Under the pieces are notes generated by a model. The model had not been told where the DNA came from. It saw nothing but the letters and a program-made list of their open reading frames with translations, and did not search any database. Made by a program: the position numbers and the translations under genes. This document shows positions 5,640 to 56,367 of a stretch of DNA of 64,000 bases, piece by piece (positions within the stretch are counted from its first letter, which is position 1; each line of letters begins with the position of its first letter). Origin of the DNA: a bacterium (lineage in GTDB: Bacteria > Patescibacteriota > Patescibacteriia > Patescibacteriales > XYC2-FULL-47-12); the NCBI GenBank assembly GCA_030698385.1, contig JAUYLZ010000022.1:1301-65300 (forward strand). The letters are read 5' to 3'.

Positions 5640-5669
5640 ACGAGACTGCCATAGTCTCGTTTTCTTTTT
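5640..5669 (+). terminator. Rho-independent terminator after ORF 4941..5618
   Basis: ACGAGACT-gccat-AGTCTCGT followed by TTTCTTTTT. Confidence 0.6.
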
Positions 5670-5700
5670 CTTTCATTTTTCCTAATAAAAATACCCTCTC

Positions 5701-5729
5701 TTGACAAATATTTTGCCATAATATATATT
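5701..5729 (+). promoter_or_regulatory. Sigma70-like promoter TTGACA-17-TATATT
   Basis: Hexamers and 17-nt spacing read directly from the sequence. Confidence 0.5.
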
Positions 5730-5735
5730 AATAAA

Positions 5736-5867
5736 AATACCTAAAAATTTAAATTAATGTCGCGCAAACAACCAAACAATTATCAGAACCGAATGTCTGA
5801 ACGCAAAACTTCAGACAATAATAATATTTTTTAATTTCCAATCTCCCAGTAACGGGAGATTTTTTTA
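5736..5867 (+). ncRNA. Candidate ~130-nt independent transcript (sRNA or 25-aa micropeptide MSRKQPNNYQNRMSERKTSDNNNIF, 5757..5834)
   Basis: Bounded by the promoter at 5701..5729 and by the terminator ATCTCCC-agtaac-GGGAGAT+T7 at 5841..5867. There is no SD before the ATG. Confidence 0.3.
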
Positions 5868-5965
5868 TAACCGATCTTTTTAGATCTTTACAATAAAATA
5901 AGCGTATAATAAACCGTAAGGTTTTTTATATAAATAATAAAAATAGCTGAGGGAGGAACAAAACC

Positions 5966-6172
5966 ATGATATGCCCACATTGCCAAAAGGAGATCACCCA
6001 ACAACATGAGGTACATGAAATTGATGAGAAACTATACCATTATCGTTGGGCCGATATTGGCCACACCTCATGTTACTGGCAAGAAATGGAAAAACAAGAA
6101 TTGCTTATTAACGGCGTTCACCCTATGTTCACAAAACAACAATTAGTTTCTTCCATAACGCAAGCTGCTTAA
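5966..6172 (+). CDS. Hypothetical small protein with N-terminal CxxC
   Basis: GAGGGAGG sits 8 nt before the ATG, the protein starts MICPHCQ, and a terminator follows. Confidence 0.5.
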   Translation: MICPHCQKEITQQHEVHEIDEKLYHYRWADIGHTSCYWQEMEKQELLINGVHPMFTKQQLVSSITQAA

Positions 6173-6200
6173 AAAAATAGTTCTTTAAATACCTCAACCA

Positions 6201-6240
6201 AAAAAAGGCAAGTCTTCAAAAACTTGCCCTTCTTTTTTTT
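6201..6240. terminator. Bidirectional terminator between ORF 5966..6172 and miaA
   Basis: A-run, GGCAAGT-N8-ACTTGCC, T-run. Confidence 0.6.
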
Positions 6241-6280
6241 AACCGATTAAATGCGGCGACTTTGCCAAAGATAAAATTAT

Positions 6281-7210
6281 TTAAAGCCAATGCTTTACGA
6301 TTTTTTTTGCCTGCGAATAATTTTTTATCCAATTTATCACCCTGCCCTGCCGCTCCCAGCGCCGCAACCATGACATTTGGCGTTTGGCAAACTGGTGAAT
6401 GGCCGTACTCAAATCATCAATAAACTCATCTTTTAGCGTAATGCCATTTACGAAATAGGTCGTATGTTTATACTCAAGACCGAAGCTTTTTAGCCGCCGC
6501 CAGCTTATTCCTTCCGCGTGCAAACGTTCTACTTCTTCAATCAGGCCTTCATTTTCAATTCGTTGAACTAATCGTTTATCGATTTTTTTATTTATTTTTT
6601 CACGGTCCAAATTAATACCCAGCAATAAACAGTCGTAATCACTGCCTTTTTTTTGCAAAGTTTCGGTCAGCGGTTTTTCCGTTTGTTTCACAATCTCAAT
6701 ATAACGAATTAAGTAGCGCTTATTTTGAATTATACTTTGAAAACTCGGATCCAATTTTTTTAGTATCTTTTGCAACTCTTTAATCGGCTTTTTTTTCAAA
6801 CTATTTCGCAACTCCTTATCCGGCTTCACATTATTAAGGCTGTAACCGTCAACAATTGCCTGTGCATAAAGTCCGGTGCCACCGACTAAAATTGGCAATT
6901 TGCCTCGCTGTTGAATATTTTTAATTGCTTTACTCGCGCATTTTATATATTTAGCCAAATTAAAATCTGTCTTTGGGCTGACAACATCAATACAATGGTA
7001 ATTAATTTTTTGAATTTTGTAGTTTAAAATTTTCAAAATATACTCATCTAAATCCTTTCCGGTGCCAACATCCATGCCCTTATAAACCTGCCGGCTATCA
7101 GCGCTGACAATTTCACCATCAAAGATACTGGCCAATTTCACGGCTAGCTTGGTTTTTCCAGTGGCGGTAGGACCGACAATTACTAGTAGTTTTTTATTGC
7201 CTTTTTTCAT
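6281..7210 (-). CDS. miaA: tRNA dimethylallyltransferase
   Basis: VIVGPTATGKT P-loop, SADSRQVYKGMDVGTGK and overall MiaA length. Confidence 0.9.
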   Translation of the reverse strand: MKKGNKKLLVIVGPTATGKTKLAVKLASIFDGEIVSADSRQVYKGMDVGTGKDLDEYILKILNYKIQKINYHCIDVVSPKTDFNLAKYIKCASKAIKNIQQRGKLPILVGGTGLYAQAIVDGYSLNNVKPDKELRNSLKKKPIKELQKILKKLDPSFQSIIQNKRYLIRYIEIVKQTEKPLTETLQKKGSDYDCLLLGINLDREKINKKIDKRLVQRIENEGLIEEVERLHAEGISWRRLKSFGLEYKHTTYFVNGITLKDEFIDDLSTAIHQFAKRQMSWLRRWERQGRVINWIKNYSQAKKIVKHWL

Positions 7211-7247
7211 AGTAATTTACTATAACATACTATTGAAAAAAATACAA

Positions 7248-7274
7248 TAAAGACGGTTTTTACACCGTCTTTTA
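7248..7274. terminator. Hairpin AGACGGT-N6-ACCGTCT flanked by A/T runs
   Basis: Read directly from the sequence. It separates the SH3b gene from miaA. Confidence 0.5.
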
Positions 7275-7313
7275 CACTTTTTTTCCATTTTAAATTGCCC
7301 ACGATTCAGCCTG

Positions 7314-7943
7314 CTATTTTTCTACAACATACTCGCCAGATACATAGCCAGTATGCCCGGCATCATCAATGACAAGCTTGTACCAATTAGTATCGGTTTT
7401 TTCCAGCCACTCATACTCCTCGCCGCTGTTTAATTTTTTGATAATATCTCCAGTCTCAACATCCGGTTCGGTGCGGACATTGAGCCAGCCCAGATCAGAA
7501 CTAACCTCTACTAATTTTCTCTCGGAAAAAATATCTCTTCCCTCCGAAGTCTCCGGCTGATTCTCACTATCTACAACCTCCGGCTCATTTTGAACAACCG
7601 CGTCTGTTTGGTCATTAGTCATGTCAGTACTATCATCCGCGACTTCTTCAGCGCTTGTTTGTTCATCTGATGTTTTATCATTATCTCCTAAAAGAGTGTC
7701 TTTAAAAAACCACGGATAAAGCCCAATTAAAACTATTACTAAGCAGATCAAAAGAAACGCCGTGCGCTTGATTAATTTATTCAGAAGTTGGCTCTCCAAA
7801 ATTGTTCCTTTTGGTTTGGAAAAACCATGAAAATCATTTAATTCTTTGATCTCTGTTTCCGCTTCGGCCAAAAGTTCTTTTAATTCTATAATTTCCTGAT
7901 CCTTTTTTTTGATCATTTCACGGTATCTTTTTTCATCAGTCAT
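7314..7943 (-). CDS. Membrane-anchored protein with C-terminal bacterial SH3 domain
   Basis: N-terminal coiled coil, one TM helix (FLLICLVIVLIGLYPWFF), an acidic linker and a C-terminal WLNVRTEPD...WYKL...GYV SH3b pattern. Confidence 0.6.
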   Translation of the reverse strand: MTDEKRYREMIKKKDQEIIELKELLAEAETEIKELNDFHGFSKPKGTILESQLLNKLIKRTAFLLICLVIVLIGLYPWFFKDTLLGDNDKTSDEQTSAEEVADDSTDMTNDQTDAVVQNEPEVVDSENQPETSEGRDIFSERKLVEVSSDLGWLNVRTEPDVETGDIIKKLNSGEEYEWLEKTDTNWYKLVIDDAGHTGYVSGEYVVEK

Positions 7944-29753: not shown

Positions 29754-30179
29754 TTAGGTAGTATGACTGCCTCTTCCGCGATGCCTTCTTACCGCTTTTA
29801 CTCTCGCCATTTCTTTAGCGATCTTTGCCTGAATAGCTGTAAAGTCAACGTGTTCTTTTTTCTCAAGCATTGTTTCTTGCGCGCGAGTTCTTGCCTCTTC
29901 GGCGCGCGCCTCGTCAATATCCGCCGCGCGTTCAGCCGTATCAGCCAAAATCACAACTTTGGTCGGCAATACTTCAATAAACCCACCGGAAACAGCCATA
30001 GTTTCGATTTGTTTATTAGGCATAACAATTTCGATAACTCCCGCTTGCAAACTGGCGATCAGAGGAATATGGTGCGGCAACACAGTAATTTCACCCTGCT
30101 TGGTCGGCACGGTTAACTGGAGCACTTCTTGTTTAAGAACTACGCGTTCAGGTGTTACGATTTCAAAATGTAATAACAT
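29754..30179 (-). CDS. atpC: F1 ATP synthase epsilon subunit
   Basis: FEIVTPERVV..GEITVLPHHIPLIA pattern. It is the last gene of the atp operon. Confidence 0.9.
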   Translation of the reverse strand: MLLHFEIVTPERVVLKQEVLQLTVPTKQGEITVLPHHIPLIASLQAGVIEIVMPNKQIETMAVSGGFIEVLPTKVVILADTAERAADIDEARAEEARTRAQETMLEKKEHVDFTAIQAKIAKEMARVKAVRRHRGRGSHTT

Positions 30180-30288: not shown

Positions 30289-31689
<1,401 letters not shown>

Positions 31690-31765: not shown

Positions 31766-32740
31766 TTAATGACTTTCCAGAGCTTGCGCGCCACCGGCGA
31801 TTTCGGCAATTTCGGAGGTAATCGCCGCCTGTCGCGCTTTGTTATATGTTAATGTCAAATCGTCAATCATATCAGAAGCCGCATCAGTCGCGTTGCGCAT
31901 GGCCATCATGCGCGCGCTGTGTTCCGAAGCGTTTGACTCAAGCAACGCCTGAAACATCTGTATTTCAACCAAACGCGGAATCATTTCGTCCAGCACCTCG
32001 CGCGGGGACGGTTCAAAAATATACTCACGGTTTTCAAAATGCTTTTTTTGCTTTTCAGACACAACTTCAGGACTCATCGCCGCTCCTTCATGAAAACGCG
32101 GCGTCGATGCCTCGCCTGCTTGCGAGCCGATAACACCCAAATATTCATCTTTTTGACTTATATCAATCGGCAGAAGCTGTTTCACGCGCGGTACTTGTTT
32201 TACCGTGGAAATAAAATCAGTATAGGCTAACATTACTTTATCATATTTACCAGATAAATAATCATTGATAACCAAACGCGCGGTTGGTATTACTTCCTCA
32301 ACTTCATTGGTAACGTCCGGTTTTTCAAACTCTGCCGCCAAATTATAGCCATAGCGATAATTAATCGCCGCGCCCTTTTTACCGAGGATGATACAGTCTG
32401 TTTCAACATCACTGTGCAGTTTAATAGAATTGACGGCCTTACTAATTATATTCGCGTTAAAGCCGCCGCACAGACCTCGGTTTGAAGTTATTAAAATTAT
32501 AGCGACTTTTTTCACTTCTTTTCGGGGATTTAGTAAAGTATGCAAATTTTCATTTCTATCAGCGACTTCGGCCAAATTTAACACTGTCAGCCAGCTCAAA
32601 TTCGCGTAGCTTCTGGTAGCCAGCACCGCCTCAATGGCCCGGCGCATTTTTGCAGCCGAAACCAACTCCATCGCTTGGGTAATTTTCTTGGTGTTTTTTA
32701 CCGATTTAATTCTTCGGATTATATCTCGTGTGCTTGCCAT
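31766..32740 (-). CDS. atpG: F1 ATP synthase gamma subunit
   Basis: IKSVKNTKKITQAMELVSAAKMRRA N-terminus and C-terminal ITSEIAEIAGGAQAL. Confidence 0.95.
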   Translation of the reverse strand: MASTRDIIRRIKSVKNTKKITQAMELVSAAKMRRAIEAVLATRSYANLSWLTVLNLAEVADRNENLHTLLNPRKEVKKVAIILITSNRGLCGGFNANIISKAVNSIKLHSDVETDCIILGKKGAAINYRYGYNLAAEFEKPDVTNEVEEVIPTARLVINDYLSGKYDKVMLAYTDFISTVKQVPRVKQLLPIDISQKDEYLGVIGSQAGEASTPRFHEGAAMSPEVVSEKQKKHFENREYIFEPSPREVLDEMIPRLVEIQMFQALLESNASEHSARMMAMRNATDAASDMIDDLTLTYNKARQAAITSEIAEIAGGAQALESH

Positions 32741-32743
32741 ATA

Positions 32744-32983
32744 TTATTTAATTTTTCTCCTTAATTCTTCATATTCTTCTACGGACATATCAAGATCTTT
32801 TAATATTTCTTTTAAGAGGCCAATGCCAAGATCTTCATTGTCATGTACCGGAACAGTAGTTGTGCGCTTACTTTCATGATTGATAAAAAAATGATGGCTG
32901 CCTTTGGAACGAAGCAAAACAAAACCTAAATGCTTTAAAATTTTTATCATCTTCTTAGCAGAGATAATGTTTAATTTTGACAT
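32744..32983 (-). CDS. hicA: HicA mRNA-interferase toxin
   Basis: 79 aa with KILKHLGFVLLRSKGSHHFF...TTVPVH. It is 2 nt after hicB and 3 nt before the atpG start. Confidence 0.8.
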   Translation of the reverse strand: MSKLNIISAKKMIKILKHLGFVLLRSKGSHHFFINHESKRTTTVPVHDNEDLGIGLLKEILKDLDMSVEEYEELRRKIK

Positions 32984-32985
32984 AG

Positions 32986-33225
32986 CTATCTGCTAAATTG
33001 AAGCTGTTGTATGCCGACAAACTGATTTTGCGGAATATTTGCCTCAAAGAATTTCTCGTCCACATCTAAACAAAGCCCGACTACCTCGTTCAGCCGCCGA
33101 TACAACTCCGGCAATGTTTTTGCCTGCGTATAACAACTGCGCAAAGCCGGCACCCGGCCAAGATAATAACCGCTATCATCTTTTTCAATAATCACCGAAA
33201 AATTATAAATTTTTCTTTTTTTCAT
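32986..33225 (-). CDS. hicB: HicB-like antitoxin
   Basis: YNFSVIIEKDDSGYYLGRVPALRSCYTQAKTLPELYRRLNEVVGLCLD (HicB N-terminal fold pattern). Confidence 0.7.
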   Translation of the reverse strand: MKKRKIYNFSVIIEKDDSGYYLGRVPALRSCYTQAKTLPELYRRLNEVVGLCLDVDEKFFEANIPQNQFVGIQQLQFSR

Positions 33226-33574
33226 ATAAAAAACTTGAATTTTTTATTAGTATTTTACAAAATAAAGGTTCAGCTTTGGGAGAGGGGATAGATTGGATAA
33301 TGCGAAAAATTCCTTCGGTGTTAGCGCAATCGGTTTCACGCATTTTCCCATCTTCAGCCGGCATTTTTAACTGTTCCCAAATTGGGAACGGTTGAAAAAA
33401 TTCTTTATCTCTTTCTTTCATTTTTGCCCAATAAGTCTTGGGTTGAGGACTGTCAGTCAGCGCTTCAACTATATCAATAACGGAAAACCACCATTCTTTA
33501 TGATAAATAGTTTTTCTGATTCTTTTGCCTTTAAATAAAGTAATGCGGGTATTGCTATTTTTAGCGTTTTTCAT
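33203..33574 (-). pseudogene. Truncated Bro-N domain gene (paralog of 54604..55431)
   Basis: It shares IRKTI(Y/H)(H/K)xEWWF and CANTEGIFRIIQSIPSxKAEP with the 275-aa paralog. Homology stops after AEP and the ORF runs 23 nt into hicB. Confidence 0.6.
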
Positions 33575-33709
33575 ATTTTATTCGCCTTTGGATATCTCTG
33601 GGTTGATGGCATTTGACAAAAATATTATTTTATTCACTAAACTTTGCCTTCTGGTTTTCTTGTTTTTTTGTTTTAATGTTCCCGTGTTTTTATGTTTTAA
33701 TGTTACGTG

Positions 33710-35239
33710 TTATGAGATCAAATAATCCAGTCCTGATTTAAAATCATTCACTCCTTTTTTCAGCTTCGCCGCCGCCTTATCTTCCAAGAGCCCGGTCTTT
33801 TCTATTTCAGCTAAAACTTCTTTTAAGTTGATGTCGGCGTACTCGTACAGACCTTTTTCAAACTCTTGAATTTTTTCAACCGGCACATCATCAAGCAATC
33901 CTTCGTTAACGGCATAAAAAATCAGCACCTGCTTGCTGACCTCAACCGGCTCGTACTGCCCTTGTTTGAATATTTCAGTTAATCTTTTGCCGCGTTCAAG
34001 TTTTTTCTTCGTGTCGTCGTCCAAATCAGAGCCGAACTGAGCAAAGGCCGCCAGCTCGCGGTACTGGGCGGCATCCAGCTTCATCTTGCCGGCGACTTTT
34101 TTCATCGCCTTCACCTGCGCGGCGCTCCCCACCCGGGACACGGAAATGCCGATATTCATCGCCGGCCTGATGCCTTGATAGAACAAATCGCCTTCTAAAA
34201 AAATCTGGCCGTCGGTAATGGAAATAACATTCGTTGGAATGTACGCGGATACGTCGCCGGCTTGCGTTTCAATAATTGGCAAAGCTGTCAGCGAACCGCC
34301 GCCATAATCTTTATTTAATTTTGCCGCGCGCTCCAAAAGGCGCGAATGCAGGTAGAACACGTCGCCCGGGTACGCCTCGCGTCCCGGCGGACGGCGCAAG
34401 AGCAGTGACATCTGCCGGTAGGCAACCGCATGCTTGCTCAAATCATCATAAATAACAATAACATCCTCGCCCTTGTCCATAAAGTATTCGCCCATGGCGC
34501 AACCGGTATAAGGAGAAATGTAAGCTAGGGCGGCCGGATCAGACGCGCCAGCGACTACGATAGTTGTGTACTCCATAGCGCCATTTTTTTCCAGTTCAGT
34601 CACAATTCGGGCAACTTTACTCTCTCTTTGCCCAATCGCTACGTAAAAACATTTTATACCTTTGCCTTTTTGATTGATAATGGTGTCAATGGCAATCGCT
34701 GTTTTGCCGGTCTGGCGGTCGCCAATGATAAGTTCGCGCTGTCCGCGGCCGATTGGAATCATCGCGTCAATTGCTTTTAACCCGGTCTGGATCGGCTGGT
34801 TGACCGAAGCGCGAGTGATAACTCCCGGAGCGATTTTTTCAACTGGATAAAATTTATCAGCTTTGATCTCGCCTTTGCCGTCAATTGGTTGGCCCAAAGC
34901 ATTTACTACGCGCCCGACTACCGCTTCGCCAACCGGCACTTCGAGAATTCTCCCCGTGCTTTTTACCGTATCGCCTTCTTTTATTTTCAAATAATCACCA
35001 AGAATTACAGCGCCAACGCTGTCTTCTTCAAGATTTAGCGCCACGCCATATATCACCTCTCCGGCCGAGACCTCAAAAGCAAGCATCTCGCTTGACAGCG
35101 CGTCCGAGAGTCCTGATACGCGCGCAATGCCGTCGCCGACCTCGGCCACTGTGCCAATTTTTTCAACCGCCACATCAGTAGAAAAATCATTTATTTGCTG
35201 TTTGAGTTGTTCAATTATGAAATCTTTTGAGTTTGCCAT
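33710..35239 (-). CDS. atpA: F1 ATP synthase alpha subunit
   Basis: [18 protein letters not shown] Walker A, full-length alpha. Confidence 0.97.
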
Positions 35240-35309: not shown

Positions 35310-35723
35310 TTAACTAACTAACTTATTTTTTAAAATTTGTAATTTATTCTTAATGCTTGCGTCAATAATGGTATAACCGAATTTTGCTATAAATCCACCG
35401 ATAATTTTTTCATCAATTTTATTATCGGCTTTAATTTCTTTGATATTTAAATTCTGCTTCAAACTCTGCTTAATTTTTTCTATCACCTCATCATCCAAAG
35501 CTTTGGCGCTGACAATTTTACCTTCAACAATTCCTTTTTCAAAATTCCATATATTCACAAACTCCTTGATAACCAGCTTGCTCTTTGTTAGCATCTGGCG
35601 CGCCGCCAAAAGCTTGGTGAAATTTTTTATCACAATCTTAATATCGCCGTCAGTTTCTGCCTGACTGACAACTTCATAAAAACTACGCGCGTATTGTTTC
35701 GGTGTGATTTTCATACTTCGCAT
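35310..35723 (-). CDS. atpH: F1 ATP synthase delta (OSCP) subunit, short form
   Basis: Operon position, and C-terminal IIGGFIAKFGYTIIDASIKNKL typical of delta. Confidence 0.8.
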   Translation of the reverse strand: MRSMKITPKQYARSFYEVVSQAETDGDIKIVIKNFTKLLAARQMLTKSKLVIKEFVNIWNFEKGIVEGKIVSAKALDDEVIEKIKQSLKQNLNIKEIKADNKIDEKIIGGFIAKFGYTIIDASIKNKLQILKNKLVS

Positions 35724-35729
35724 TGAATT

Positions 35730-36224
35730 TTAAACCTCTTTAATAATCTTTTCAATAAAATTCTTATCCAAGCCGCTGTCTAACTTTTGCGCTAATACTT
35801 TTTCGACCGCCGCTACTACCAGCTCGCCAGTCTCCGCTTTTATCTGCGCGGTAATTAACTTTTTTTCGTTCTCCAAATCTTGTTTGGTCTTGGCAACAAT
35901 GGCGCTGATTTCTTCTTTGGCCTTAACCATCATCTCTGCCTTGCGCGCCTCCCCCTGCTTGTTTACTTCAGCTAAAATTATACTCGCTTCTTGTTTGGCT
36001 TTTTTGATAATATCTTCTCTTTTACTTTGCGTATCGGCCAGTTCACTTTCGATTTTTTCCGCGTTTTTCAGACTATCATCGATTTTTTGCGAGCGCTCCT
36101 GCAGCACTTTCATCAGCGGTTTAATGCCAAAGTAGTAGAGCACCACAAAGACAATCGCAAAATTTACCACTTGCGCAACTAAGAGCTTAACATCTATATG
36201 AAATGTAGAAATGACTTCTCCCAT
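35730..36224 (-). CDS. atpF: Fo ATP synthase b subunit
   Basis: Single N-terminal TM helix plus a long charged helix. Operon position. Confidence 0.85.
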   Translation of the reverse strand: MGEVISTFHIDVKLLVAQVVNFAIVFVVLYYFGIKPLMKVLQERSQKIDDSLKNAEKIESELADTQSKREDIIKKAKQEASIILAEVNKQGEARKAEMMVKAKEEISAIVAKTKQDLENEKKLITAQIKAETGELVVAAVEKVLAQKLDSGLDKNFIEKIIKEV

Positions 36225-36293: not shown

Positions 36294-36530
<237 letters not shown>

Positions 36531-36711: not shown

Positions 36712-37593
36712 CTAATGTTCTTCGCCGGTATTAATCGTCAAAAACGCCAGTGTCAACATCGCAAAAATCAAAGCTTGAATCACTCCAACAATTATTTCCA
36801 AAAACATAAACGGAATCGGCACCAGCCAAGCAATCATCGCGGACATTGAAGCGAGCAGAACTTCACCGGCGAAAATGTTACCGAATAAACGAAAAGAAAG
36901 TGACGCGACCTTGGCAATTTCACCGACAATTTCCACCAGTCCCACAAACGCTTTGATTGGATTGACCAAAATTATGGTTGGCTCTTTCATAATCTTTTTT
37001 GGTATTTCCAGAAATGCTTCAATATTAATAAACTTATTCAAATACTTCCAGGCGCCGAGTTTAAAAATGCCAAATAAGTGCGAAGCCGCCACCGCGATTA
37101 GCGCCAAAGCTAAAGTTGTGTTCAAATCAGCAGTGCCGCCGCGAAAAAATGGTATCAAAACCTGTTCGCCGTGTTCGGAAACAACTTGTCCAACCGTGCC
37201 CACTCCGGGCAAAAGGCCAAACCAATTATTTAATAGTATAAAAATAAAAAAAGTAAACACCAAGGGAAAAAACTGCAATGATTTTTTGTGATCGCCGGTG
37301 ACTGAATCAAATGTTTCCAAAAACCATTCAAAAATCATCTCAAAGATTCCCTGAATTTTTCCCGGAATTTTTTTAATGCTTAATTTTAAAGTAGCAAAAA
37401 TAATAATTATCAGCAAAACCACCATCCAGCTGACCAATAACGAATTAGTAACCGCGAATCCGCCAATATTGAAAAGCGGTTCGGCAAAAAGTGTTTGCTC
37501 ATGCTTAACTTCAACTAAAACATTCTGCGAATCGTTATTTGTCTTATTTATATTTATTTCTTGGTTGCTTTCATTCATGATTTTAATTTTCAA
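36712..37593 (-). CDS. atpB: Fo ATP synthase a subunit
   Basis: LSFRLFGNIFAGE with the conserved Arg, multi-pass membrane protein. Confidence 0.9.
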   Translation of the reverse strand: MKIKIMNESNQEININKTNNDSQNVLVEVKHEQTLFAEPLFNIGGFAVTNSLLVSWMVVLLIIIIFATLKLSIKKIPGKIQGIFEMIFEWFLETFDSVTGDHKKSLQFFPLVFTFFIFILLNNWFGLLPGVGTVGQVVSEHGEQVLIPFFRGGTADLNTTLALALIAVAASHLFGIFKLGAWKYLNKFINIEAFLEIPKKIMKEPTIILVNPIKAFVGLVEIVGEIAKVASLSFRLFGNIFAGEVLLASMSAMIAWLVPIPFMFLEIIVGVIQALIFAMLTLAFLTINTGEEH

Positions 37594-37637: not shown

Positions 37638-37898
37638 TTATTTTTTATTGTACTTATCCATTTCCTTAAATGAATCTCTTACCAGACCAAACATGGATAT
37701 GGCAAAAGCTATGCCTACAGTTAACAAAAAAAGCCATGGTTCTGTATCATAACGCCGGTCCAACCATTTCCCCAGATATATCGCCAGAACTACCGGTCCG
37801 ATTATCCAACCGGACAGGCGCGTAAACATAAGTAGCGCCGGTTGCCACCAGGCGGCGACATCTTCTTCTTTTTTTTGTTTATCTTCGCTAATTTGCAT
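37638..37898 (-). CDS. AtpZ/AtpI-like small membrane protein
   Basis: 86 aa, two TM helices, first gene of the atp operon, preceded by AAGGAGG. Confidence 0.6.
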   Translation of the reverse strand: MQISEDKQKKEEDVAAWWQPALLMFTRLSGWIIGPVVLAIYLGKWLDRRYDTEPWLFLLTVGIAFAISMFGLVRDSFKEMDKYNKK

Positions 37899-37942: not shown

Positions 37943-37971
37943 ATTATAATGTAATGCTAGCTAACAGTCAA
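37943..37971 (-). promoter_or_regulatory. atp operon promoter TTGACT-17-TATAAT
   Basis: The minus strand reads TTGACTgttagctagcattacatTATAAT, about 45 nt upstream of the atpZ start. Confidence 0.55.
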
Positions 37972-38073: not shown

Positions 38074-38091
38074 AACTACATTGCAAACAAT

Positions 38092-38166
38092 CGGGATGTA
38101 GCTCAGTTGGCAGAGCGCTCGCTTAATGAAAGCGAATGGCCGCAGGTTCGAATCCTGTCATCTCGA
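38092..38166 (+). tRNA. tRNA-like gene with canonical acceptor, D and T arms but an expanded or shifted anticodon arm; anticodon not assignable
   Basis: Acceptor CGGGATG/CATCTCG, D-loop AGTTGGCA, T-arm GCAGG-TTCGAAT-CCTGT. The anticodon region CTCGC-TTAATGAAA-GCGAA is either a 4-bp stem with a 9-nt loop or a shifted 5-bp stem TCGCT/AGCGA with loop TAATGAA that lacks U33. Confidence 0.6.
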
Positions 38167-38184
38167 ATTTATTTTAAAAAAAAT

Positions 38185-52713: not shown

Positions 52714-54591
52714 TTAGGTGGTAATAATGGATTTGACCTTTTCCACAATCCCCGCCGCGTCAATCCCCTCATACTTGAGCAACTCCTCCGGCTTACCACT
52801 GCGCGGCAGTTTTGTTACCGCCAGCGAATAGGTGGGACGCGTAATAACACCGGAACCGCAGACCGCTTCGTACAAACCGCCTTCGGGGTGATTGTCTTCC
52901 ACAACGATTAACGCTTGCGTTTCCTGACAGGCTTTTTGTAGCGCTTTGGTGTCTAACGGTTTGACGCTGTACAAATCAATTACGCGAATGTGAATACCCT
53001 GTTTTTGCAGTTCATAAAAAGCTTTAATCGCCTCGTGCAAAGCGATGCCGGCGGCAATAACGGTCGCGACATCTTTTTTACTTTGAAAAATTGTCTTACT
53101 GCCGCCGATTTTAAAACTCTCGCCGTTGCTGTAAATCACCGGCGTCTTCGCGCGCGTAGTTTGTAAATAAACCAAACCGTCATGCTTGGCCGCCGCCAAA
53201 ACTAACTTCTGTGTAGCAACGGCATCAGACGGATACAGCACAACGCTATTGTGAACTGAGCGAAACAAGGCGATTTCTTCCAGCCCCATCTGCGAGGCGC
53301 CGTCTTCGCCAATAGACACGCCGGCATGCGAACCGATAAATTTAATATTTGCGCCAGAATACTGACACATACGAATTTGATCAGCCGCGCGCGTGAAAAA
53401 GGCGGCGAAGGTTGAAACAAAAGGAATTTTTCCCCGCCGCGCCAAACCCAGCGCCGCGCCAACCATGTTCTGCTCGGTAATGAACATTTCAAAAAACTGC
53501 CGCGGCGTTTTTTCTTTTACCGTTTCGGCAAAAGTGGAGTTACTTACCTCGGCATCCAGTACTACTACCTGCTTATTCGCCTTTGCCAGTGCGGCAATCA
53601 CATCGCCATAGGCCTGACGTGTCGCAACCTGTTCATCTTTACGGTAAATTTTAGATTTAGGATTTATGATTTTAGATTTGTTTGGAGTTTGTCCCGCCAC
53701 GGCGGGATTGGAGCTTGGAGCTTTTAACTGACCTCGCGCTTCATGATCAACTTCCCCCAACTCTTTAATTGCCTTATTCAAATCATCCTCCGCCAGCGCT
53801 TTTCCATGCCAGCCGTCTTTATTTTCTAAAAATGACACACCCTTGCCTTTCAATGTTTTTGCAATGATCATCACCGGTTTACCCGTCGTAGAGACACGAT
53901 ATATCGCGTCTCTACCCTTCAACGCCTTGTCGTAAACACGGGCCACCTGCTGCACATTGTGTCCGTCAACCACCACCGCCTCCCAGCCAAATGCCTTTGC
54001 CTTGTCTGCAAAATCTTTCACATCATGCCCCGGCATAGTTTCGCCGCGCTGGCCGAGCCTGTTCACATCAATAATGCCGATTAAATTATTTAATTTATAA
54101 TAAGCCGCCACCTGCATCGCCTCCCAGTTTGATCCTTCGGCCATTTCGCTGTCGCCGAGCAGTACGAAGGTTTTGTAAGCCAAACCATCATAACGCGCGT
54201 TGAGCGCCATGCCCACGCCAACGGACAGCCCTTGTCCGAGCGAGCCGGTCGCGACTTCAGTGTACGGCAGGCGACGTGTCGGGTGCCCCTCAAGGCGGGA
54301 GGTAAACTTACGAAATGTGGTCAACTCTTTATTGGTAATGCTTGAACCCGCAACCGCCGCCCACAGTGAGTAGAATAATGGCGAGGCATGCCCTTTGGAA
54401 AAAATCAGCCGGTCGTTATTCTGATTTTCAGGATTTTTAATATCATATTTAAAATAACCATTAAAAAACAACACCGCCATCAGCTCCACGGCTGACAGAC
54501 TGGACGTTGGATGTCCGGAACCGGCCGCCGTGGATGAGGTTAAAATCCAGTAACGCATGAGTTTAGCGATTTTATTTATATCATTTGGCAT
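52714..54591 (-). CDS. tkt: Transketolase (N- and C-terminal halves of the split type joined by an atypical linker)
   Basis: GHPTSSLS, GSLGQGLSVGVG and GDSEMAEGSNWEA (TPP binding), then the linker, then ATRQAYG...FITEQNMVGAA...SHAGVSIGEDGASQMG. Confidence 0.92.
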   Translation of the reverse strand: MPNDINKIAKLMRYWILTSSTAAGSGHPTSSLSAVELMAVLFFNGYFKYDIKNPENQNNDRLIFSKGHASPLFYSLWAAVAGSSITNKELTTFRKFTSRLEGHPTRRLPYTEVATGSLGQGLSVGVGMALNARYDGLAYKTFVLLGDSEMAEGSNWEAMQVAAYYKLNNLIGIIDVNRLGQRGETMPGHDVKDFADKAKAFGWEAVVVDGHNVQQVARVYDKALKGRDAIYRVSTTGKPVMIIAKTLKGKGVSFLENKDGWHGKALAEDDLNKAIKELGEVDHEARGQLKAPSSNPAVAGQTPNKSKIINPKSKIYRKDEQVATRQAYGDVIAALAKANKQVVVLDAEVSNSTFAETVKEKTPRQFFEMFITEQNMVGAALGLARRGKIPFVSTFAAFFTRAADQIRMCQYSGANIKFIGSHAGVSIGEDGASQMGLEEIALFRSVHNSVVLYPSDAVATQKLVLAAAKHDGLVYLQTTRAKTPVIYSNGESFKIGGSKTIFQSKKDVATVIAAGIALHEAIKAFYELQKQGIHIRVIDLYSVKPLDTKALQKACQETQALIVVEDNHPEGGLYEAVCGSGVITRPTYSLAVTKLPRSGKPEELLKYEGIDAAGIVEKVKSIITT

Positions 54592-54603: not shown

Positions 54604-55431
54604 TTATTTTAATCTCTTTTTATTTTCAGGCATCTGTAAAAAATTATCTTTTGTTGAAACTTTTTTTCCGCTTTTTTTCTCAAGGTCCTTTCTGGCCTTG
54701 CCGGCTACGCTTCCGCCTGCTTGCGCGGCCAGTTTATTTTTATCAAAACCCATGGTGTCTTTATTTTTAGCAATCTCAATAGTTGAGGCCTCGCCAAGCA
54801 TGGTAAAAATCAATTCCAGGTCGTTCATATGATCCCTCAAATTTTCTCTGTTTAAATTCTTGAACTTTTGATATTGACTGGGAGTCATGCCGAAAGTCGC
54901 TTGGGAAATTTCCGCAGTCAAAATCGCGTACTCTCGCTTTTCTTTGACGCCGCGTTTTTGCCATTCGTCCGTCAAGGTTTCGCGAACTTCTATCCCGCGC
55001 ATTCGTTTCTCAATCCAGGCGTCAGAATATCCTTTGGCTTTATAAAGCGTCCTTGTTCTTTTTGTCGCTATTTCTGGATCTTCAATTTCTTGTATTCGTT
55101 CATAACCGACTTTAGCCAGCCAGCGCTTGAATGGCTCGGCTTTTGAGGAGGGAATTGACTGAATAATACGAAAAATTCCTTCCGTATTAGCACAATTCAG
55201 TTTTTGAGGACCTCCTGCGGTATCAATGGTAAGGGTGGTGGCAATTTGCCCCCATCCTTGGGATAGCTCCTGGTCGCGCCTACGCATATCTTTTATATAT
55301 CCTTTTGGTTGCACAGAATTAGTTAATGCAGCTACGACATCTTCAATCACAAACCACCATTCGTTTTTATGTATGGTTTTACGAATTTCTTTTTTCCTGA
55401 AAATAGCTATTTTAGTTGATGCGATTTCCAT
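54604..55431 (-). CDS. Bro-N domain protein (phage antirepressor-like N-terminus)
   Basis: KEIRKTIHKNEWWFVIEDVVAALT and EGIFRIIQSIPSSKAEPFKRWLAKV follow the Bro-N pattern. The C-terminal half is helical and charged. Confidence 0.65.
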   Translation of the reverse strand: MEIASTKIAIFRKKEIRKTIHKNEWWFVIEDVVAALTNSVQPKGYIKDMRRRDQELSQGWGQIATTLTIDTAGGPQKLNCANTEGIFRIIQSIPSSKAEPFKRWLAKVGYERIQEIEDPEIATKRTRTLYKAKGYSDAWIEKRMRGIEVRETLTDEWQKRGVKEKREYAILTAEISQATFGMTPSQYQKFKNLNRENLRDHMNDLELIFTMLGEASTIEIAKNKDTMGFDKNKLAAQAGGSVAGKARKDLEKKSGKKVSTKDNFLQMPENKKRLK

Positions 55432-55476: not shown

Positions 55477-56367
55477 TTACTTCTTCGTCACCGCGTGTCC
55501 CCCAAACTCCCGCCGGGTCGCAGCAATCACCCGCTTGCCCAAGGCAAATTTTTTGGAGGTATCTTGACGAGTTTTCACTGCTACTTCAAACGCCGGCGCG
55601 TAGCCGTTGATTGACTGCACCGTATCCTGCAATTCTGCAATGGTAACGCTGCCGATTTGAGTGGAAATATCTTTAAAATCCTTACGCGTAAGACCCGTAA
55701 CCATCCAGTCAAGCAAAGCGCTGCTCACAATACTCGCCGGCTGCCAGGTCTTGGCCGCCTTGAGCAGGTCAATTTTTTGTTCAAAGCCGTTGAGCAACTC
55801 CATACCTTCAGCGAGCCCTTGCATGTATACGTACTCAATGATGTTATGCACGCTTTTGACAAAGTGTCCGGCGCCGCTGGCGCCAAAATAGCCGTAACCG
55901 TTTTTGGGCGCGAGCGCCTTGCAGAATGGCTCAATGTGTTTGAACTGCGCTTTTGGTCCGCCAATCATCAGCGCGTAGCCGCGTGTGAGTCCCCAGATAC
56001 CGCCGGAAACACCGGCGTCAAACAAATGCACGCCGTATTTGGCACAACGCTGGCTCTGGGTTTGCGCGTTTTTGTAAAAAGCGTTCGCGCCGTTGATAAT
56101 GATGTCGCCTTTTTTTAAAAGAGGCAGAAGCGCGTCAATCGTTTCATCAGTCACTTGACCGGCGGGCAGCATCAGCCAGATAATTTTTTTACGCGGCAAC
56201 GCCGCTACCAACGCCTCCAGCGTATCAGCGGTTTTTCCCTTGGCTTTGGTTATCTCCCGATAGACCTCTTTACTGCGGTTGAAGCCAACAACATCATGCC
56301 CGTTCCGGAGCAGACGGACAGCCATGTTTTTACCCATACGGCCGAGGCCGAGAATACCGATAGTCAT
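55477..56367 (-). CDS. gnd: 6-phosphogluconate dehydrogenase (decarboxylating), short form
   Basis: IGILGLGRMGKNMAVRL Rossmann motif, GVSGG and GAGHFVKSVHNIIEY. Confidence 0.85.
   Translation of the reverse strand: MTIGILGLGRMGKNMAVRLLRNGHDVVGFNRSKEVYREITKAKGKTADTLEALVAALPRKKIIWLMLPAGQVTDETIDALLPLLKKGDIIINGANAFYKNAQTQSQRCAKYGVHLFDAGVSGGIWGLTRGYALMIGGPKAQFKHIEPFCKALAPKNGYGYFGASGAGHFVKSVHNIIEYVYMQGLAEGMELLNGFEQKIDLLKAAKTWQPASIVSSALLDWMVTGLTRKDFKDISTQIGSVTIAELQDTVQSINGYAPAFEVAVKTRQDTSKKFALGKRVIAATRREFGGHAVTKK

Follow-up and report, generated by a model that had tools for sequence, protein, structure and literature searches.

The question raised by this locus is how a toxin-antitoxin pair and a truncated phage-type gene came to stand between atpA and atpG, in the middle of the operon for the F1Fo ATP synthase, and whether they influence the complex that this operon encodes. 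The locus is found in a 64,000-nucleotide (nt) stretch of patescibacterial DNA, referred to here as the window (assembly GCA_030698385.1, contig JAUYLZ010000022.1), and the operon and the inserted block are both on its minus strand. All coordinates are those of the window unless a relative is named. On balance, the block (32741-33612, about 0.87 kb) is probably an old and decayed remnant of mobile DNA, which entered the start of atpG in a Falkowbacteria-like ancestor and would now be a passive resident and not a regulator.

The ATP synthase operon is complete. By open reading frames (ORFs), Pfam and NCBIfam, 8 of 8 subunit genes and atpZ are present, co-oriented and in canonical order. Along the minus strand the order is atpZ-B-E-F-H-A, the Bro-N fragment, hicB, hicA and atpG-D-C, as described in the initial annotation, and the two spacings given there are exact in the sequence: the Bro-N ORF overlaps hicB by 23 nt, and hicA ends 3 nt before the start codon of atpG (the hicA stop codon TAA, then TAT, then ATG). 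The hicB and hicA genes are 2 nt apart. The names Bro-N, hicB and hicA are already in the public record of this metagenome-assembled genome. Judged by its atpG, the bacterium belongs to the Patescibacteria (CPR), near Falkowbacteria. The features of the block and its borders, with protein lengths in amino acids (aa), are as follows:

33710-35239, minus strand: atpA, F1 alpha subunit, 509 aa (Pfam ATP-synt_ab, ATP-synt_ab_C, ATP-synt_ab_N)
33613-33709, minus strand: inferred original atpA-atpG spacer, 97 nt, A-rich, without a G+C-rich hairpin (read from the sequence)
33575-33612, minus strand: left repeat, a decayed duplicate of atpG nucleotides 1-37 (ATGCCATCAACCCAGAGATATCCAAAGGCGAATAAAAT) (global alignment, shuffles)
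33203-33574, minus strand: truncated Bro-N / phage Ant-like gene, ORF of 123 aa (Pfam Bro-N, phrog_15286)
33226-33262, minus strand: region upstream of hicB, candidate internal promoter (three-lineage alignment)
32986-33225, minus strand: hicB, small antitoxin, 79 aa, partial RNase H-like fold, Class 2 (PDB 2yzt, AlphaFold2, Foldseek, phrog_497)
32744-32983, minus strand: hicA, toxin, 79 aa, G-S-H-H motif intact (Pfam HicA_toxin, PDB 1whz, 4c26, 6g26)
32741-32743, minus strand: spacer between the hicA stop and the atpG start, TAT (read from the sequence)
32704-32740, minus strand: right repeat, nucleotides 1-37 of atpG, the functional copy (alignment)
31766-32740, minus strand: atpG, F1 gamma subunit, 324 aa (Pfam ATP-synt, NCBIfam TIGR01146)

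The comparison with related genomes that the initial annotation proposed shows that the atpA-atpG junction is mostly empty. Among 120 distinct Patescibacteria relatives, the median gap is 50 nt; the gap is at most 200 nt in 112 of them and exceeds 400 nt in six, which hold other cargo (23S rRNA-IVP proteins, retropepsin-like proteins and ORFs without a known family). This supports the view that Bro-N and hicBA are accessory cargo at a normally empty junction. The 97 nt taken as the original spacer of the window fall within the length range of the relatives, and there is no terminator-like site in them.

The block, however, does not simply lie in the spacer. The 38 nt at 33575-33612, which directly abut the Bro-N start codon, align with nucleotides 1-37 of atpG and score higher against atpG than against eight other gene starts. 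Only 9 of 2000 shuffles reach their score against atpG of the window, and none of 2000 reaches that against atpG of L181 (L numbers are labels of the compared loci from relatives). Corresponding stub remnants are present in L181, whose own copy has a score reached by 1 of 2000 shuffles, and in L184, and the stub abuts the Bro-N start in all three lineages. The L184 stub is unambiguous, since its position after the hicA tail and TAT is exactly that of the genuine atpG in other lineages. By these alignments, the block is enclosed in a duplicated 5' end of atpG.

The order of genes in L184-186 is also informative. Here, atpA is followed by an antisense ORF of 137 aa, by codons 1-66 of hicB fused by a deletion to the hicA tail, and by TAT; then come a 37-nt atpG stub (MANTRNIIEK, stop) and, directly, the Bro-N start codon. 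This order (hicB, hicA tail, atpG stub, Bro-N) is a circular permutation of that in the window and L181 (atpG stub, Bro-N, hicB, hicA, atpG). The atpG repeat and the permuted relative together suggest integration into the 5' end of atpG, while for a circular or excised form the permuted order is suggestive only.

A similar layout has been described for dusA islands and prophages, which integrate in the 5' end of dusA and supply a replacement 5' end (Farrugia et al. 2015, PMC4482086). The atpG block resembles them in its insertion at the 5' end of a conserved protein gene, in the direct repeat of the gene's first nucleotides, in the downstream copy that leaves the gene intact, and in the existence of relatives with empty sites. 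It differs in having no integrase, in measuring only ~0.87 kb (it would have to be a remnant), and in its target, atpG, which lies inside an operon.

The Bro-N gene at the left of the block belongs to the phage Bro-N or Ant-type anti-repressor genes (PF02498; phrog_15286), with which it has the N-terminal Bro-N domain in common. These genes encode ~274 residues, while the operon copy retains about the first 104; it has neither a complete Bro-N domain, the last helix being lost, nor the ~274-aa architecture. It matches Pfam Bro-N over positions 4-86 of 96 (E 1.2e-8, 35.9 bits, cut-off 25.6) and the phrog_15286 profile over positions 4-103 of 274 only. A 275-aa paralog in the same window (54604-55431) matches all 274 positions of this profile (E 5e-84); its match to NCBIfam DinD is weak (E 0.0015, far under the cut-off). 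Residues 4-101 of the paralog and the fragment share 50% identity, and the similarity ends after KAEP, where every close homolog goes on with FKRWLAKVGYER, which is absent from the fragment. At the DNA level, similarity to the paralog stops at ~33264, 38 nt ahead of hicB. Homology to the family is confined to codons 1-104 (~33263-33574); the 19 codons that follow come from the A+T-rich stretch upstream of hicB, which simply continues the frame. The fragment has 3318 homologs, and none of them spans more than ~85% of it. The loss of homology right after KAEP, pointed out in the initial annotation, is thus borne out by both protein and DNA comparison. Of its further proposal, that hicBA replaced the 3' half of Bro-N, the truncation stands; replacement is indistinguishable from an internal deletion in one composite element.

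Inside the Bro-N fragment, at 33364-33398, there is a palindrome with a stem of 16 base pairs and a CGTTCCCAATTTGGGAACAG core, which encodes PFPIWEQLK and is terminator-like on the plus strand. A near-identical palindrome is found just past the Bro-N stop in L169-171 and L181-183, at another position relative to the frame; this placement points to a mosaic history of the Bro-N remnants. A Bro-N protein of 216 aa from another source (P0030) is identical to the window fragment (33446-33574) at 42 of its first 43 residues and then continues as another subtype, a switch that suggests recent recombination among members of the family. The full-length paralog on the minus strand also intrudes, as the second accessory gene in the window to do so, into a conserved cluster of metabolic genes; its co-oriented neighbours are a 6-phosphogluconate-dehydrogenase-like gene (55477-56367) and a transketolase gene (52714-54591), with G6PD further upstream. 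A possible duplicate of the transketolase 5' end upstream of this paralog is not significant (697 of 2000 shuffles reach the score).

The right part of the block is a toxin-antitoxin pair. HicA matches Pfam HicA_toxin (PF07927) over residues 10-65 (E 6.6e-21, 74.6 bits, cut-off 27) and phrog_353 'toxin' (3.8e-16). It reads RSKGSHHFF where it is aligned with the G-S-(A/H)-H motif of PDB 4c26 and with 1whz, and the histidine of G-S-H is, we assume, the catalytic residue. HicB matches PDB 2yzt, a single-domain Thermus protein (E 1.3e-7; 1.1e-9 with a profile), and the HicB-like phrog_497, and scores 21.1 bits against Pfam UPF0150, under the cut-off of 27.3. It has no match in NCBIfam, which holds no family for any of the three inserted proteins. 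Close homologs of HicB carry precomputed PF15919, and the NCBI name of the window protein is HicB-family antitoxin.

The AlphaFold2 model of HicB, predicted with database homologs (pLDDT 84), has a beta-beta-beta-alpha core (strands 12-15, 21-24 and 32-35, helix 38-60), and there is no regular secondary structure in residues 61-79. Foldseek ranks 2yzt, 6u0i_B, 6hpb_B, 6g1c, 1wv8 and 4p78 first to sixth. The model superimposes on E. coli 6hpb_B with a TM score of 0.68 and a root mean square deviation of 1.7, and Burkholderia and Yersinia HicBs are also matched; these structural matches are to the N-terminal halves only of HicBs of 135-140 aa. No helix-turn-helix, ribbon-helix-helix or Phd domain is present in the 79 aa of HicB, whose gene is directly upstream of hicA.

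Judged by this predicted fold, the pair is a Class 2 hicBA module sensu Gerdes. Class 2, the commonest class, has a small HicB of 57-94 aa without a DNA-binding domain (10.1101/2023.12.08.570793 / PMC10865869). The window pair is like such modules in the order hicB-hicA with a 2-nt gap, in the size of HicB and its partial RNase H-like domain only, in a HicA of 79 aa with the G-S-H-H motif, and in its compactness (~0.5 kb). Published Class 2 modules are stand-alone bicistronic operons, whereas the window pair is embedded and co-oriented in an essential operon, has no evident promoter of its own, and stops 3 nt ahead of the start codon of the next gene. The HicAB systems of E. coli, Burkholderia and Yersinia (6hpb, 6g26, 4p78) have the HicA fold family and the N-terminal fold of HicB in common with it. 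In these classical systems, however, hicA precedes hicB, and HicB has 135-145 aa, with an autorepressing helix-turn-helix or ribbon-helix-helix domain that is absent from HicB of the window.

Relatives of the pair that are not linked to atp genes are found by tRNA genes and in unrelated contexts, which was counted as mobility of the family. The closest of them (HicA 65-73% identical) adjoin genes for tRNA-Ser, tRNA-Leu and tRNA-Arg (L166 3482-3709, L172 3636-3719, L178 785-857 and 1584-1671) and have a TATAAT box ~8 nt ahead of the hicB start. This suggests insertion of the islet type and possibly leaderless transcripts.

The placement of hicBA before atpG is old, because it is common to at least three further species-level lineages, so that at least four lineages of one Falkowbacteria-like clade, including the window, have it. 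In L169-171 and L181-183, among them the NCBI Falkowbacteria CG10 genome, the order is atpA, Bro-N fragment, hicB, hicA, 3 nt and atpG, and the Bro-N fragment has 90 aa and a stop after TEGIF. In L174-177 the order is atpA, hicB, hicA, 2 nt and atpG. The spacer before atpG is TAT in the window, CAT (3 nt) in L170 and AT (2 nt) in L174.

L174-177 also provide a view of the pair in decay, since hicA has a 1-nt deletion and the hicB start is ATA. L179 and L180 are 99.9% identical to L175 (5 of 5002 positions differ), and one of the differences restores the ATG of hicB. The hicB start is therefore polymorphic in one population, being ATG in two samples and ATA in three (L175 4696 compared with L180 5003), while the hicA frameshift is found in all alleles. 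Because the frameshift is in both alleles and the hicB start is still polymorphic, it appears that the toxin was lost first in this lineage and that the antitoxin is now drifting. This is the order expected for a decaying toxin-antitoxin pair.

In a neighbour-joining tree of atpA, atpG and atpD, the hicBA lineages and L083/85, L002/86 and L003 form one clade, given as a six-lineage clade, whose bootstrap support is 100%. Within it, L174 pairs with L181 (90%), the lineages lacking hicBA are a nested group (68%), and those bearing hicBA never come out as monophyletic. One gain at the base of the clade and one loss would be the simplest history to fit this tree. The similarity of the cassettes, ((L170,L174),window), agrees with the host tree. 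No remnants of hicA or Bro-N were found ahead of atpG in L002, L003 and L083, which lack hicBA. The initial annotation had favoured an insertion and set against it an old, fixed arrangement with full-length Bro-N in all relatives. The age part of this alternative holds (at least four lineages, with one sub-clade that has lost the block), while a full-length Bro-N occurs nowhere at this site.

The history that we favour would begin with a unit that carried a phage-type Bro-N/Ant-like gene at its left and Class 2 hicBA at its right, followed by a replacement for nucleotides 1-37 of atpG. This unit (Bro-N ... hicB-hicA-TAT-atpG(1-37)) would have recombined with the chromosomal 5' end of atpG, so that atpG stayed intact on the downstream side while a dead stub of its 5' end (33575-33612) was left on the upstream side. 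The unit would later have lost most of its length, and either an internal deletion or an insertion of hicBA may have joined codon 104 of Bro-N to the region upstream of hicB. In the L184 lineage, recombination may have happened twice, or there may have been a tandem duplication. As in other members of its family, HicA would be an mRNA-cleaving toxin restrained by the binding of the small HicB, and the pair may persist as a selfish addiction or defence module sheltered in an essential operon.

The selection acting on the pair was assessed from codon comparisons. The dN/dS of hicB and hicA is 0.08-0.12 (hicA compared with L170, ~0.1), which shows, by this measure, that both genes, intact in the window, are under purifying selection. 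At conserved residues, codons identical between the window and L170/L174 make up 68-84% in hicB and hicA, compared with 48-62% in the atp genes and 50-62% expected at saturation. The excess has a sharp boundary at the atpG start, with none in the first 40 atpG codons, and over the first 90 nt of Bro-N the window and L181 agree at ~88% of positions. A+T richness was considered as the cause and rejected: A+T-rich atpH (33% G+C) and atpB (38% G+C) are saturated, and after a permutation that preserves codon usage, hicB and hicA still exceed expectation by 13-31 percentage points. Taken together with the differing subtypes of the Bro-N remnants, these patterns hint that the block was exchanged between lineages, or converted, at some later time; they are the main unexplained observation.

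Several points weigh against the favoured history. At synonymous sites, all eight atp genes that flank the block have diverged 2-3.5 times as far as hicBA and the 5' end of Bro-N, a difference that simple vertical inheritance does not predict. The 104-codon Bro-N frame is intact and 75-81% identical to full-length relatives, which is odd for an ancient pseudogene. The middle part of the Bro-N remnant is of one subtype in the window and of another in L181, and this requires that a replacement or conversion took place at least once. The ORF, Pfam, NCBIfam, phrog and element searches found no integrase, recombinase domain or intact element, and in the block itself the Bro-N fragment, hicB and hicA are the only ORFs that match a family. 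Finally, the integration mechanism rests on the repeat and on one permuted relative, whose contig ends inside Bro-N.

An actively mobile, site-specific Bro-N...hicBA cassette, which still passes laterally between related Patescibacteria, repeatedly inserts itself anew at the first 37 nt of atpG or converts them, and has copies younger than the lineages that carry them, would account for the shared synonymous codons, for the sharp edge at the atpG start and for the similarity of the Bro-N 5' ends. The order in L184 resembles a second integration or an attP-like junction, the Bro-N family is 75-81% identical across hosts whose atpG genes are less than 70% identical, and a BRO-family gene has been reported to be horizontally transferred in Patescibacteria (PMC12455944). 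However, the similarity of the cassette tracks the host tree, and no recombinase, free element or viral-contig copy was found: in searches of viral contigs the hicA-tail pattern had 0 matches and the Bro-N paralog gave only two uninformative loci. Two genes of 79 codons give a wide error, and local differences in rate could explain the excess. We regard this explanation as unlikely, though not far-fetched, and prefer to see the block as an old remnant.

A further explanation, in line with the initial annotation, is two unrelated events in the spacer, in which Bro-N was inserted and hicBA then removed its 3' half; the resemblance of 33575-33612 to the atpG 5' end would then be incidental. This agrees with the abrupt end of Bro-N homology at ~33264, 38 nt before hicB, with the hicBA relatives that occur without Bro-N in other genomes, and with the presence of Bro-N alone in another operon of the window (54604-55431). 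What makes it improbable is the atpG stub, whose match stands out from the shuffles in the window and L181 and is unmistakable in L184, and which abuts the Bro-N start in all three lineages; in addition, Bro-N is downstream of hicBA in L184, which a single ordered pair of events leaves unexplained.

Whether the block regulates the operon depends on how it is transcribed and translated. The remaining genes of the operon and its best candidate promoter are:

37943-37971, minus strand: best candidate atp promoter, TTGACT-17-TATAAT, 11 of 12 positions, upstream of atpZ (consensus scan)
37638-37898, minus strand: atpZ (Pfam ATPase_gene1)
36712-37593, minus strand: atpB (the L175 counterpart has ATP-synt_A)
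36294-36530, minus strand: atpE (the L175 counterpart has ATP-synt_C)
35730-36224, minus strand: atpF (the L175 counterpart has ATP-synt_B)
35310-35723, minus strand: atpH (Pfam OSCP)
30289-31665, minus strand: atpD (ORF; Pfam on the same gene in L001)
29754-30179, minus strand: atpC (ORF; Pfam on the same gene in L001)

The initial annotation saw no terminator between hicA and atpG, and in a scan of the minus strand from atpA to atpG none convincing is found either, apart from a weak hairpin inside hicB. Because the block is co-oriented with the operon and there is no terminator, it is most likely transcribed by read-through from the atp promoter, possibly helped by a weak promoter within the block, ahead of hicB. 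One candidate is a -10-like box that precedes the hicB start by ~25-30 nt (TAAAAT in the window, TATAAT in L170, TATAAA in L174); it has no -35 box and was not picked by the consensus scan. Rfam has no match in or near the block, and RNA of the hicA-atpG junction is no more structured than shuffled sequence (z = -0.02). Translation of atpG would start in this unstructured, A/U-rich region, 3 nt past the hicA stop. There is no Shine-Dalgarno sequence close to the atpG start, and the relatives with an empty site have none either and show the same A-rich context, which argues that the initiation signals of atpG are independent of hicA.

It is tempting to see in this layout a pair co-opted for the control of atpG-D-C, through an autoregulated promoter, through mRNA cleavage by HicA or through translational coupling of hicA and atpG. 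The hicA-atpG spacing of 2-3 nt is kept in three lineages, HicA and HicB are under purifying selection, and a Shine-Dalgarno sequence is missing near the atpG start. Yet HicB lacks, in its sequence and predicted fold, a DNA-binding domain, and the relatives with an empty site start atpG equally without a Shine-Dalgarno sequence. In L174-L180 the operon persists although hicA is frameshifted and hicB has lost its start codon, so that expression of atpG does not appear to need a working pair; most of hicA is deleted in L184, and the same operon is found in relatives without the block. Since HicB has no DNA-binding domain, and since sister lineages inactivate or delete the pair and keep the operon, the coupling of ATP synthase expression to toxin-antitoxin autoregulation that the initial annotation had inferred is not supported, and we consider functional coupling of any of these kinds highly improbable. 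A search of the literature on toxin-antitoxin genes within ATP synthase operons found nothing relevant.

Finally, the arrangement could be an artefact. The support for the assembly across 32.7-33.7 kb that the initial annotation asked for comes from Logan contigs of two sequencing runs, SRR13727534 (25766-33512) and SRR26726065 (33080-34129), which are 100% identical to the window and share 433 nt across Bro-N and hicB; they break near Bro-N because it is a very large repeated family (3318 homologs). A mobile element wrongly joined to the atp operon has in its favour that these contigs end inside or near Bro-N, which belongs to a repeated type that tends to break assemblies, but its probability is negligible, since overlapping, identical contigs from two independent runs cover both junctions and rule out a chimera there, and since the same arrangement was assembled independently from other lineages (JGI, ENA and NCBI data).

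Accessory genes inside atp operons are not confined to this clade. The atpG-atpD junction is occupied in 28 of 117 Patescibacteria relatives, compared with the six of 120 that have long gaps between atpA and atpG. As in the window, the accessory genes are small and co-oriented with the operon; they differ in their cargo and lie mostly at the atpG-atpD junction. Examples, all co-oriented and in coordinates of their own loci, are:

L033/L126 7248-7992: MazE/AbrB-like antitoxin and PIN toxin, between atpG and atpD
L041 6992-7516: ORF6N protein (a relative of KilA-N/Bro), inside the atp operon, atpG-atpD cargo
L090 4923-5384: DUF5680, inside the atp operon, atpG-atpD cargo
L121 1595-2371: rve integrase, inside the atp operon, atpG-atpD cargo
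L065 5569-5949 and L119 2217-2582: 23S rRNA-IVP protein, between atpA and atpG

In Patescibacteria, the atp operon is thus a recurrent site of small accessory genes.

Some neighbouring observations should be recorded. L083, the closest atpG relative of the metagenome scan, has a different insert of 953 nt (570-1522) at the atpA-atpG junction. This insert encodes an antisense protein of 119 aa with an internal repeat and contains two copies of a hairpin (aatcacccctcaccag...) and two promoter-like segments (tagtagcataattatataaaaaagtcaagt), one of them directly upstream of atpG; with its antisense repeat protein and its duplicated promoter-like and hairpin segments, it was rejected as a relative of the block. 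L089 (76% to atpG) was also set aside, as a G+C-rich contig with unrelated DNA. L181 has an extra insert between atpD and atpC (5641-7474) with ORFs of 70 and 545 aa, the longer of which has a C-x3-C-x2-C motif (CSKGCPFC) reminiscent of radical SAM enzymes and no Pfam match on record. In bacteria, the anticodon of tRNA-His is normally GTG; at 38091-38167 on the plus strand of the window, ARAGORN calls a tRNA-His with the anticodon ATG and an apparent A at position 33 of the anticodon loop, two features that are rare in bacterial tRNA-His; it may be a miscall or an odd tRNA.

It is possible to go further and to propose that Patescibacteria harbour a small selfish element that has Bro-N and hicBA at its two ends, targets nucleotides 1-37 of atpG specifically, carries a replacement 5' end and still spreads or converts laterally among Falkowbacteria-like lineages. 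This is doubtful, but if it were true, the ATP synthase operon would be a safe harbour with a free promoter, and the flanking repeat, the permuted junction of L184 and a cassette that is two- to three-fold younger synonymously than the operon would all be explained. If the site-specific reading were true, atpG would join dusA and the tRNA genes as a target whose 5' end is restored by the element.

The novelty of the locus is modest: the components of the block come from known families and are unremarkable within them, and intrusions of this sort are frequent in the phylum. The parts that merit the attention of specialists are the duplication of the atpG start and the snapshot of toxin-antitoxin decay, in which related lineages appear as successive stages, the toxin going first and the antitoxin second. 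For annotation there is a warning, as the position of toxin-antitoxin genes inside an operon is no proof of a regulatory role. For the biology of these bacteria, with their tiny and streamlined genomes, the locus indicates that selfish DNA can reside for long periods in an essential operon, even at its most conserved junction.

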